Shown here piece by piece: positions 11,893 through 44,448 of a DNA stretch of 64,000 nt. The position numbers and the translations under genes are program-made. The notes below the pieces were generated by a model, which saw only the letters and a list, made by a program, of their open reading frames with translations, had not been told where the DNA came from and searched no databases. Each line of letters starts with the position of its first letter. Position 1 is the stretch's first letter. Source of the DNA: Escherichia coli (GTDB lineage Bacteria > Pseudomonadota > Gammaproteobacteria > Enterobacterales > Enterobacteriaceae); NCBI RefSeq assembly GCF_002854065.1, contig NZ_CP024147.1; one strand, 5' to 3'.

Positions 11893-11921
11893 GTCAAAAG
11901 CCTCCGACCGGAGGCTTTTGA
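11893..11921. terminator. Bidirectional intrinsic terminator between convergent tonB and yciA
   Basis: Hairpin aaaagcctccg-ac-cggaggctttt with flanking A/T runs; this tonB terminator is a well-known bidirectional one. Confidence 0.7.
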
Positions 11922-24822: not shown

Positions 24823-26718
24823 ATGGCAGGGAAGTTTCGCTGCATTTTGCTGTTGATAGCAGGGCTGTTTGTATCATCTCTAAGTTATGCAGAAAACAAG
24901 GAGATCCCTTCTTATGAAGAAGGGATCTCGCTCTTTGATGTTGAAGCCACTCTGCAACCGGATGGGGTGCTCGACATCAAAGAGAACATTCATTTTCAGG
25001 CGCGAAATCAGCAGATTAAGCACGGATTTTATCGTGATTTACCACGACTATGGATGCAGCCTGATGGGGACGCTGCACTGCTGAACTATCATATTGTTGG
25101 CGTCACCCGTGATGGTATTCCTGAACCCTGACATCATGACTGGCATATCGGGTTAATGAGTATTGTCGTGGGCGATAAACAACGTTTCTTGCCTCAAGGC
25201 GACTATCATTATCAAATTCATTATCAGGTTAAAAATGCTTTCCAGCGTGAGGGAGATTCAGATCTGTTAATCTGGAACGTGACTGGTAACCACTGGCCGT
25301 TTGAAATCTATAAGACCCTATTTTCACTCAAGTTCCCTGATATCGCGGGTAATCCATTTAGCGAAATCGATCTCTTTACTGGAGAAGAGGGCGACACATA
25401 TCGAAATGGCCGCATCCTTGAGGACGGAAGAATTGAATCCCGCGATCCGTTTTATCGTGAAGATTTCACGGTACTCTACCGCTGGCCTCACGCTTTACTT
25501 AGCAATGCCTCGGCTCCACAAACGACGAATATTTTCAGCCATCTTCTTTTACCCTCCACATCATCGTTGTTAATTTGGTTTCCGTGTCTATTCCTGGTTT
25601 GTGGATGGTTATATCTCTGGAAGCGCAGGCCGCAATTTACGCCGGTAGATGTGATTGAAACCGATGTCATTCCGCCAGATTACACGCCCGGCATGTTACG
25701 TCTCGATGCGAAGCTGGTTTACGACGATAAAGGGTTTTGTGCCGATATCGTAAATCTGATTGTGAAAGGAAAAATTCATCTGGAAGATCAGTATGATAAG
25801 AACCAGCAAATCCTGATTCGTGTTAATGAAGGCGCGACCAGAAATAATGAGTTATTACTGCCCGCAGAGCAGTTATTACTGGAAGCGTTATTTCGTAAAG
25901 GCGATAAGGTCGTTCTTACGGGGAGACGCAACAGAGTCTTACGCAGGGCATTTTTACGGATGCAGAAATTTTATCTGCCGCGTAAAAAGTCTTCGTTTTA
26001 CCGGCCTGATACTTTTTTGCAATGGGGTGGACTGGCAATATTGGCGGTCATTCTTTACGGTAACCTGAGTCCTGTAGGCTGGGCAGGAATGAGTCTGGTG
26101 GGCGATATGTTTATTATGATCTGCTGGCTTCTTCCTTTTTTATTTTGTTCCCTTGAGCTTTTGTTTGCCCGCGATGATGACAAGCCTTGCGTTAATCGTG
26201 TAATCATCACTTTGTTTTTACCGCTGATTTGTTCAGGCGTGGCCTTTTATTCTCTCTATATCAATGTCGGAGATGTATTCTTTTACTGGTATATGCCAGC
26301 GGGGTATTTTAGCGCTGTTTTCCTGACCGGTTATCTCACTGGTATGGGGTATATTTTTCTGCCAAAGTTTACCCAAACTGGGCAACAACGTTATGCCCAC
26401 GGTGAAGCTATCGTTAACTATCTTGCGCGTAAAGAGGCGGCAACACACAGTGGGCGGCGGCGGAAAGGGGAAACACGGAAACTGGATTACGCGTTGCCAG
26501 GTTGGGCAGTCTCAGCAAACCTTGGAAGAGAATGGGTTGCACGTATCACCCCATCACTCACAGCGGCTGTTAGCGCCCCGGAAATTGCCTGTAGTGGCGT
26601 TTTGTTCTCATTACAGATGCACCTGAGTCTGGGGGCCAATACCAGTTTGTTGGGGCGAAGTTATTCCGGTGGTGGTGCTGGCGGCGGCGCGGGTGGCGGA
26701 GGCGGTGGTGGCTGGTAA
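24823..26718 (+). pseudogene. yciQ: yciQ (DUF2207 membrane protein) interrupted by an in-frame TGA at 25129-25131
   Basis: ORFs 24823..25131 and 25156..26718 are in the same frame, separated only by TGA in the context GIPEP*HHDWHIGLMSIVVG; intact YciQ is ~631 aa. Confidence 0.75.
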
Positions 26719-26931
26719 TCAAGCTGATGTTAATCGAAACAAGCTTTAACCATAAAGATAGTGTAGTATGTTGCGCCTCAAAGCCAGGCCAGTTGAAACG
26801 TCAAGTTCGTTTACTTAAGGCCTGAAGAGTTCAAACAGACTTTACTATCAGTGAGTCAGATGTAAGTTCTGACTCACTGTTGCACAAAAGCATATCAGAC
26901 GCCTGGGAAGGCGACACCAAAAGGAAGCTCT

Positions 26932-27804
26932 ATGAGCGAAAAGCTACAGAAAGTGCTGGCGCGTGCCGGCCACGGTTCTCGCCGTGAAATCGAATCTATT
27001 ATTGAAGCCGGTCGTGTGAGTGTTGATGGCAAAATTGCTAAACTCGGCGATCGTGTTGAAGTTACCCCTGGATTGAAAATCCGTATCGATGGTCACCTGA
27101 TTTCGGTACGTGAGTCCGCTGAACAAATTTGTCGCGTTCTGGCCTATTACAAACCGGAAGGTGAGTTGTGTACCCGTAACGATCCGGAAGGACGTCCAAC
27201 GGTGTTTGACCGTCTGCCAAAACTGCGTGGCGCACGCTGGATTGCCGTGGGTCGCTTGGACGTTAATACCTGTGGTCTGCTGCTGTTCACCACCGATGGT
27301 GAACTGGCAAACCGTTTAATGCATCCAAGCCGTGAAGTTGAACGTGAATATGCCGTGCGTGTATTTGGTCAGGTTGACGACGCGAAACTGCGTGATTTGA
27401 GTCGTGGCGTGCAGTTGGAAGATGGTCCGGCAGCTTTTAAAACCATCAAGTTCAGCGGCGGCGAAGGGATCAACCAGTGGTACAACGTGACTCTGACCGA
27501 AGGCCGTAACCGTGAAGTTCGTCGACTGTGGGAAGCGGTTGGTGTGCAGGTGAGCCGCCTGATCCGTGTTCGTTACGGTGATATCCCACTGCCAAAAGGT
27601 CTGCCACGCGGTGGCTGGACGGAGCTGGACCTCGCCCAGACTAACTATCTGCGCGAACTGGTGGAGCTACCGCCAGAAACCAGCTCTAAAGTCGCTGTAG
27701 AAAAAGACCGTCGTCGCATGAAGGCGAATCAGATTCGTCGTGCGGTGAAACGTCACAGTCAGGTGAGCGGCGGTCGTCGTTCTGGCGGGCGTAATAGCGG
27801 TTAA
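26932..27804 (+). CDS. rluB: 23S rRNA pseudouridine(2605) synthase (290 aa)
   Basis: S4 domain at N-terminus; RsuA/RluB catalytic core; Arg/Gly-rich C-terminal tail. Confidence 0.95.
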
Positions 27805-44180: not shown

Positions 44181-44448
44181 AATACTCTCTCCTGAATTTA
44201 TGATTCACGGAAGTAAGCTCTCTATAACTATAATAGCTAAGAATAAGCATGGTGAAATTATTCCGTGAAATCCGCTCGCGCGCAGGGTTATATCACGCAG
44301 GTGATAATGACTTCCTGTTATATCGCTGATAATAATTTTATATCTTAAGAGTGTTAATAACAGGTAAATAGTCTTAATTATCAACCAGGAATCATCTTAG
44401 AGCGGATGATTTGCCAAACTGCAAATCATCCGTAGAGAAGGGAAATGG

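Follow-up and report, generated by a model that had tools for sequence, protein, structure and literature searches.

The window analysed here is a stretch of Escherichia coli DNA of 64,000 nucleotides (assembly GCF_002854065.1, contig NZ_CP024147.1), in which the yciQ open reading frame ends at 26718 and the rluB open reading frame starts at 26932. These gene names, assigned in the preliminary description of the locus from its letters, are correct according to the annotation of E. coli genomes, where the flanking genes are yciQ (DUF2207) and rluB; the region is 100% identical to that of strain XJ34. The spacer between the two genes contains a stem–loop, CAGTGAGTCAGA-TGTAAGT-TCTGACTCACTG, the two 12-nt arms of which lie 7 nt apart and are 100% complementary in an inverted-repeat search, as had been claimed for it. 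The hairpin is separated by 130 nt from the yciQ stop and by 52 nt from the rluB ATG, in agreement with the approximate spacings of 130 and 50 nt given previously. The features of the spacer and its surroundings are collected in Table 1.

Table 1. Positions in the window of the features of the rluB leader and of the segment to which it belongs
Feature	Position	Strand	Description	Basis
Presence/absence segment	24796–26898	+	yciQ and the long rluB leader with the hairpin	genome comparison, junction sequences
Promoter-like block	26741–26783	+	-10-like TAGTAT at 26764–26769, then discriminator GTTGCGCC	
Upstream leader hairpin	26785–26824	+	CAGGCC...GGCCTG, variable apex	folds
Stem–loop	26849–26879	+	5' arm 26849–26860, loop 26861–26867 (TGTAAGT), 3' arm 26868–26879	
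Tail	26880–26898	+	TTGCACAAAAGCATATCA, degenerate counterpart of the U-rich tails in other genera	alignments
GNRA leader hairpin	26899–26915	+	ACGCCU-GGGA-AGGCGAC, 5-bp stem, dG -8.2 kcal/mol	
Shine–Dalgarno sequence and rluB start	26921–26934	+	AAGGAAG and ATG (26932), conserved across loci	

The stem–loop and its tail

Six of the 12 pairs of the stem are G-C. Folded as RNA the hairpin has a dG of -19.4 kcal/mol on the + strand (z = -5.4 against shuffles) and of -18.5 kcal/mol on the - strand, and it appears as an independent helix in both the minimum-energy and the centroid structures. A first-order Markov null predicts 0.03 perfect inverted repeats with arms of 12 bp or more and loops of 3–10 nt per 64-kb window, against four loci observed (11894–11921, 24901–24929, 26849–26879 and 44403–44432). 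The pattern of the hairpin itself matches once in the window with up to 3 mismatches allowed.

Two of the other repeats deserve a brief description. The palindrome at 24901–24929, GAGATCCCTTCTT-ATG-AAGAAGGGATCTC, lies within the yciQ coding region and has 13-bp arms and a dG of -19.5 kcal/mol; Escherichia sp. MOD1-EC7003 and E. whittamii carry it unchanged, although their yciQ genes are 5–11% diverged, and the yciQ of Klebsiella sp. lacks it. The repeat at 11894–11921, TCAAAAGCCTCC-GACC-GGAGGCTTTTGA, is flanked on both sides by A and T tracts, in the manner of a bidirectional terminator.

Two potential coding features of the spacer were considered and set aside. At 26860–26865, in the loop region, AUG is directly followed by UAA, a start codon abutting a stop with no Shine–Dalgarno sequence and within a stable stem; the stop is not kept in E. 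whittamii (UAC). A small protein from the 32-codon reading frame at 26727–26825 was likewise rejected, as this frame has no Shine–Dalgarno sequence and is truncated by indels in K-12.

The stable, G+C-containing stem–loop of an intrinsic terminator is present, and the tail that follows it, TTGCACAAAAGC, has no U-tract: its first positions, TTGCACAA, hold 2 T in 8, where at least 5 T in the 8 positions directly after the stem are demanded of a terminator. A terminator scan of 26500–27100 reports no terminator. The tail sequence and the scan both uphold the earlier statement that the hairpin has no U-tract and is not an obvious intrinsic terminator. A (C)TGTT motif straddles the end of the stem and the tail and recurs in most of the loci described below (E. 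coli CTCACTGTTGCACAAAAGCATATCAGACGCC, Klebsiella L077 CTCATTGTTTCATAAAGCATACCAGACGCC). Folds and the list of reading frames contain no antiterminator, leader peptide or ligand sensor for the hairpin; the sole reading frame upstream of it, at 26727–26825, begins ahead of the transcription start proposed below and is truncated in K-12.

The mapping of transcript ends had been proposed as a check on the hairpin. Among the K-12 Term-seq entries listed in the supplement of PMC7815308 there is no 3' end at the hairpin, none anywhere between the yciQ stop and the rluB ATG, and none at MG1655 positions 13266xx–13268xx, so that a role in processing or stability is one that we infer. The nearest 3' end on the + strand among those entries is at MG1655 1327761, past rluB (PMC7815308). 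The same study places a bicyclomycin-sensitive, Rho-dependent site within yciQ at MG1655 1325258 (+), approximately window 25335, and a second Rho-dependent site at MG1655 1326939 (-), approximately window 27019, which is antisense to the 5' part of rluB and faces the spacer (PMC7815308).

Conservation in Escherichia and the two rluB leaders of E. coli

A genome scan with YciQ gives close-enough relatives only in Escherichia sp. MOD1-EC7003 and E. whittamii. The 180-nt spacer (26719–26898) of E. whittamii is 95.6% identical to that of the window, higher than every flanking gene (yciQ 88.6%, rluB 93.7%, yciO 93.1% and rnm 93.5%). The spacer of MOD1-EC7003, at 97.2%, is barely above rnm (97.1%) and clearly above the other three genes (yciQ 94.7%, rluB 96.2% and yciO 94.0%). 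Anchoring a metagenome scan on the sequences that flank the hairpin gives 66 loci, and diversity was calculated for 45 sequences, the window and the loci with enough flank, which comprise 32 distinct haplotypes. Diversity is 0.034 in the spacer, compared with 0.116 and 0.095 at the third codon positions of yciQ and rluB, the rluB figures being inflated by one locus that diverges after 26913. Two blocks, 26730–26788 and 26827–26853, are invariant across the 32 haplotypes, and the indels and substitutions of the spacer cluster at the apex of the upstream leader hairpin (26789–26812).

Within the hairpin the canonical sequence, with perfect pairing, is found in 45 of the 70 sampled sequences. The most frequent variant, C to T at 26877 (19/70), replaces a pair of the stem with G.U, and a loop G to A change (3/70) leaves the stem unaffected. 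The remaining variants are found once each (1/70): MOD1-EC7003 combines the loop G to A change with C to T at 26869, which gives a G.U pair; E. whittamii combines A to G at 26854, again giving G.U, with a loop change; and a singleton carries C to T at 26877 and also T to C at 26868, the latter giving an A.C mismatch at the loop-closing pair in addition to the G.U at 26877. Three of the four stem changes in Escherichia keep the pairing on the + strand, while on the - strand the same changes are C.A mismatches, and, although these numbers are small, a + strand RNA is therefore favoured. RNAalifold retains the hairpin for 11 distinct spacers, with zero compensatory changes within Escherichia. In the comparison of related genomes, also suggested in the preliminary description, the Escherichia spacer is conserved above its flanking genes, and the pairing of the stem is kept by G.U pairs and by the compensatory changes considered below.

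A 57-nt query covering the hairpin is present in 3976 of 5426 complete E. coli genomes, at a median of one place per genome and at most 2. All 3976 genomes are at least 90% identical over this region and only 2 are below 95%. The median of one place per genome shows the hairpin to be a single-copy locus and not a dispersed repeat. The matches among plasmid records are mislabelled E. coli chromosomal DNA, and a dispersed repeat (REP/BIME, ERIC or MITE) or a mobile element was accordingly rejected on the grounds of single copy, mislabelled plasmid matches and junctions with no direct repeats. REP/BIME and ERIC palindromes are similarly intergenic and hairpin-forming; the rluB hairpin differs from them in being single-copy per genome with no sequence relatives elsewhere.

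Approximately 1446 E. coli genomes match another query only at its positions 199–251, from window position 26898 onward. These genomes are without yciQ, and a 65-nt spacer past yciO forms their short rluB leader. The short spacer has its own hairpin, AATGGCGC-TCTACT-GCGCCATT, and homology to the window resumes at GACGCCTGGGAAGGCGACA. A long yciQ-bearing allele and a short yciQ-less allele therefore coexist in E. coli, in 73% versus 27% of complete genomes, and the short allele resembles the junctions of Kosakonia and Cronobacter. The hairpin lies approximately 19 nt inside the right edge of the presence/absence segment, and the junction sequences contain no direct repeats or element ends flanking it. 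In the window itself codon 103 of yciQ (25129–25131) is changed from TGG to TGA, splitting the gene into reading frames 24823–25131 and 25156–26718; yciQ is probably a pseudogene in this strain, since TGG is found in 36 of the 36 other loci compared.

The rluB leader across Enterobacterales

A set of 13 Enterobacterales loci was assembled via RluB and YciQ. The cargo between yciO and rluB varies: it is yciQ in Escherichia, Klebsiella sp. RHBSTW-00484 and Entomohabitans, an OprB-like porin in Salmonella, and EamA and LysR genes in locus L077, the 300-aa RluB of which clusters with that of K. pneumoniae. Nothing intervenes in Kosakonia, Cronobacter and Mangrovibacter, and Erwinia and Nissabacter have other arrangements; an acetyltransferase is also among the cargo of the junctions (L002, L003, L006, L076, L077, L082, L087). 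The spacer past yciQ in Klebsiella sp. RHBSTW-00484 (L006 5620–5880) contains a sequence that resembles an ERIC/IRU-type enterobacterial repeat, and an 87-codon gene on the opposite strand follows this repeat-like sequence.

The leaders share one order of elements, namely a -10-like block, a G+C-rich discriminator, a variable hairpin slot, 2–18 nt, the GNRA hairpin, a Shine–Dalgarno sequence and the AUG. The stem–loop of the window occupies the variable hairpin slot. Its placement in the yciQ–rluB spacer was correct in the preliminary description, but this frame proves too narrow, as relatives of the hairpin precede rluB where the upstream gene is not yciQ, some of them with a U-run.

Of the sequence that separates the upstream gene from the leader, the -10-like block alone is conserved in the 9 long-spacer loci. 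Its hexamer is TAGTAT, TACTAT, TACCAT or TATAAT, followed by a discriminator resembling GTGCGGCC; in the short-spacer loci, TATACT-ACGCGGCC takes its place within an identical layout. The block is upstream of the hairpin in every locus, by 80 nt in the window. A sigma-70 scan of the window and of related loci never reports it, because there is no -35 match, and the published data searched contain no mapped transcription start for rluB. In Salmonella and Mangrovibacter a canonical terminator belonging to the upstream gene precedes the -10-like block, so that a new transcription unit has to begin between this terminator and rluB. The block is, on these sequence comparisons, a putative rluB promoter with a start near 26776. 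G+C-rich discriminators are typical of promoters under growth-rate or ppGpp control.

At the other end of the leader the GNRA hairpin has the loop GGGA or GUGA and at most 1 substitution in 13 of 13 loci, and it is also present in yciQ-less E. coli. It belongs to the invariant leader GACGCCUG(G/U)GAAGGCGAC, which is followed by the Shine–Dalgarno sequence and ATG (26899–26934 in the window). A scan of viral contigs for this leader gave one chance match within a coding region. The GNRA hairpin, for which Rfam has no family, is conserved more strictly than the stem–loop, and it may be here that the true regulatory core of the leader lies.

The stretch that separates the -10-like block from the invariant leader is unalignable across genera, yet a stable hairpin is found 2–18 nt before GACGCC in almost every locus. 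The 65 nt before the invariant leader have a mean z of -2.25 against dinucleotide shuffles over the 13 loci; at most 2.3% of shuffles fold as well in 7 of these, and 4 are indistinguishable from shuffles. U-runs directly past the slot hairpin are present in about five loci of 13 (UUUUU in Klebsiella sp. and Entomohabitans, UUUU in Salmonella and Mangrovibacter, and UUGUUU in Erwinia). None of the three slot hairpins scanned (Entomohabitans, Salmonella and Klebsiella sp.) passes a strict terminator rule.

The base of the stem is homologous between E. coli (TATCAGTGAGT...ACTCACTGTTGCACAAAAGCATATCAGACGCC), Entomohabitans L082 (TATCAGTGAGT...AACTCGCTTTTTAGAATACATCAGACGCC) and Klebsiella L077 (AACAATGAGT...CCTCATTGTTTCATAAAGCATACCAGACGCC). 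An alignment of nine stem pairs from five distinct sequences has 95.6% of its cells paired, and sliding the 3' strand lowers this to 23–56%. Two pairs are altered on both sides, one from G-C to A-U, for which the E. coli G.U variant is an intermediate, and one from C-G to U-A. With five distinct sequences a column-shuffle control for this covariation is not significant (104/500), and the stem data are consistent with selection on pairing but too thin for proof. The E. coli stem has 12 pairs and a dG of -19.4 kcal/mol, compared with 8–9 pairs in its relatives and about -8 kcal/mol in Entomohabitans.

Possible functions of the hairpin

Several known identities were compared with the hairpin. Rfam 15 gives no relevant match in 26000–27600, even at E-values up to 10, and in the related loci it gives only the trp leader (RF00513) and, in the Erwinia locus, a TwoAYGGAY RNA, away from the rluB leader. 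At 12 bp the stem is too short for an RNase III site, which requires about two turns or roughly 20 bp. A 16-nt helix, 81% complementary, would adjoin the hairpin (26757–72 with 26834–49). This long helical element (90 nt, 26757–26849), which abuts the hairpin, was rejected, since the promoter-like block supplies one arm and other genera do not show the pairing. Mimicry of helix 93 of 23S rRNA, the RluB substrate around U2605, was also rejected. In the test region, 23S 2575–2625, GUGAGUCAG resembles GUGAGACAG with a score of 13, which 11–13% of shuffles reach, and the best 23S match of the hairpin lies outside helix 93. For the GNRA leader hairpin as a 23S mimic 43–95% of shuffles score as well.

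The reading that we favour, tentatively, is that the hairpin is a stem–loop of the rluB 5'-leader RNA which derives from a leader terminator and now acts as a weak constitutive attenuator or pause site and as a structural barrier. It would be formed on the + strand within the 5' leader of the rluB mRNA, by transcription running through it from the putative start, and also in any transcript reading through from yciQ. With their U-runs, the slot hairpins of several genera resemble leader terminators or attenuators. In the yciQ-bearing Escherichia lineage the stem would have grown from 8–9 to 12 perfect pairs while the U-tract decayed to UUG; the longer stem and the decayed U-tract therefore suggest a constitutive weak attenuator or a pause and structural barrier, which may act on termination, pausing or mRNA decay. 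Its effect would be to restrict and insulate transcript flow into rluB, and it would not be an efficient terminator. As in leader terminators and attenuators such as the trp leader (RF00513), a stable hairpin lies between a promoter-like block and a ribosome-binding site, with U-runs in several genera; unlike them, the E. coli hairpin has only UU and fails the terminator scan, and no antiterminator, leader peptide, sensor or listed premature 3' end accompanies it. That 27% of E. coli do without the hairpin is a counterpoint to an attenuating role. In appearance the hairpin is a common leader or attenuator-type structure whose U-tract has been lost, and not an element of a new type.

Structural obstacles in 5' UTRs slow RNase E, the access of which depends on the 5' end. 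The hairpin could on this basis be purely an mRNA stability or processing element, an internal 5'-UTR structure that hinders RNase E or stops nucleases and so prolongs the life of the rluB message with transcription unaffected. We consider this doubtful. In its favour, there is no U-tract and no 3' end at the site among the Term-seq entries listed, selection is apparently on a perfect and very stable stem rather than on sequence, and a slot that is conserved in position while its sequence turns over would be expected of a purely structural role. The hairpin shares with such obstacles an internal location in the leader, high stability and a structure that is conserved where its sequence is not; that role, however, leaves unexplained the U-runs past the slot hairpin in about five taxa. 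Nor does the hairpin represent a 5'-terminal protective stem–loop, because it lies approximately 73 nt from the 5' end that we infer, and no record of decay or cleavage was found for it. The lack of transcript ends or a phenotype in the literature and among the Term-seq entries listed would also suit a relic that no longer has a function, having once been a leader terminator and being kept only by low mutation input or hitch-hiking, as would a U-tract decayed relative to Entomohabitans and Klebsiella and the use of the other leader by 27% of E. coli. A relic is nevertheless unlikely, given a stem that is longer and more perfect than in relatives, a spacer diversity approximately one third of that at synonymous-type sites, and surviving stem variants that preserve pairing.

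Among transcripts terminated by Rho, protective stem–loops occur at the 3' ends (Dar and Sorek, 2018; PMC6061677), and a stable hairpin with no U-tract past yciQ, a gene with a Rho-sensitive site, is similar to these. The hairpin might therefore belong to the 3' end of the yciV-yciO-yciQ transcript, either as a terminator lacking a U-tract or as a stem that stops exonucleases after Rho-dependent termination. Its position 130 nt past the stop of yciQ, which has no canonical terminator and is grouped in a yciVOQ operon, and its presence in exactly the genomes that carry yciQ point in this direction. This is improbable, however. The conserved promoter-like block precedes the hairpin, and rluB has homologous or equivalent hairpins before it also in loci with a LysR regulator, a porin or yciO as the upstream neighbour. 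No 3' end is found at the site among the Term-seq entries listed, and in Salmonella and Mangrovibacter the terminator of the upstream gene is a separate structure. A role of the palindrome at the DNA level, as the operator of a dimeric regulator, a cruciform or a recombination site, would draw on the perfect 31-bp dyad and its location close to the right edge of the presence/absence segment, and is the least probable of the readings considered. The C to T variant at 26877 breaks the dyad in 19 of 70 sequences yet keeps a G.U pair, and other genera conserve the pairing and not the half-site sequence, so that a protein-binding DNA palindrome is unlikely and a symmetric operator, the half-sites of which are not conserved at the DNA level, was rejected. 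The hairpin is moreover single-copy, has no relatives on true plasmids or elsewhere in the genome and lacks flanking direct repeats. The interpretation given at the outset is thus supported in part: the assignment of the hairpin to the rluB leader is supported, at the level of RNA, by the location downstream of the -10-like block and by the G.U and compensatory changes, and binding of a protein to a DNA palindrome is not, the dyad being broken in 19/70.

RluB makes pseudouridine 2605 near the peptidyl-transferase centre and associates with 50S assembly intermediates (PMC9848016, PMC11194073). A search for a published account of how rluB is expressed found none, and the published literature on yciQ and rluB that was searched contains nothing on the spacer. 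It is conceivable, although we give this a low probability, that rluB carries an Enterobacterales cis-regulatory leader not described before, made up of a promoter bearing a G+C-rich discriminator, a slot for a hairpin or terminator, and the invariant GNRA hairpin beside the ribosome-binding site. The 12-bp stem would then serve as its attenuator arm, with rluB expression under feedback from the enzyme or from the state of 50S assembly, as in the leaders of ribosomal-protein genes. Should the layout be regulatory, it would offer a three-part target for mutation in the stem, the tail and the GNRA hairpin; should it not be, the hairpin is a leader structure of the usual sort and of local interest. 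Of greater interest is a by-product of the analysis, the conserved layout of the rluB leader together with the two leaders that coexist in E. coli, a species that thereby provides a natural comparison of two alternative ways of leading into rluB.
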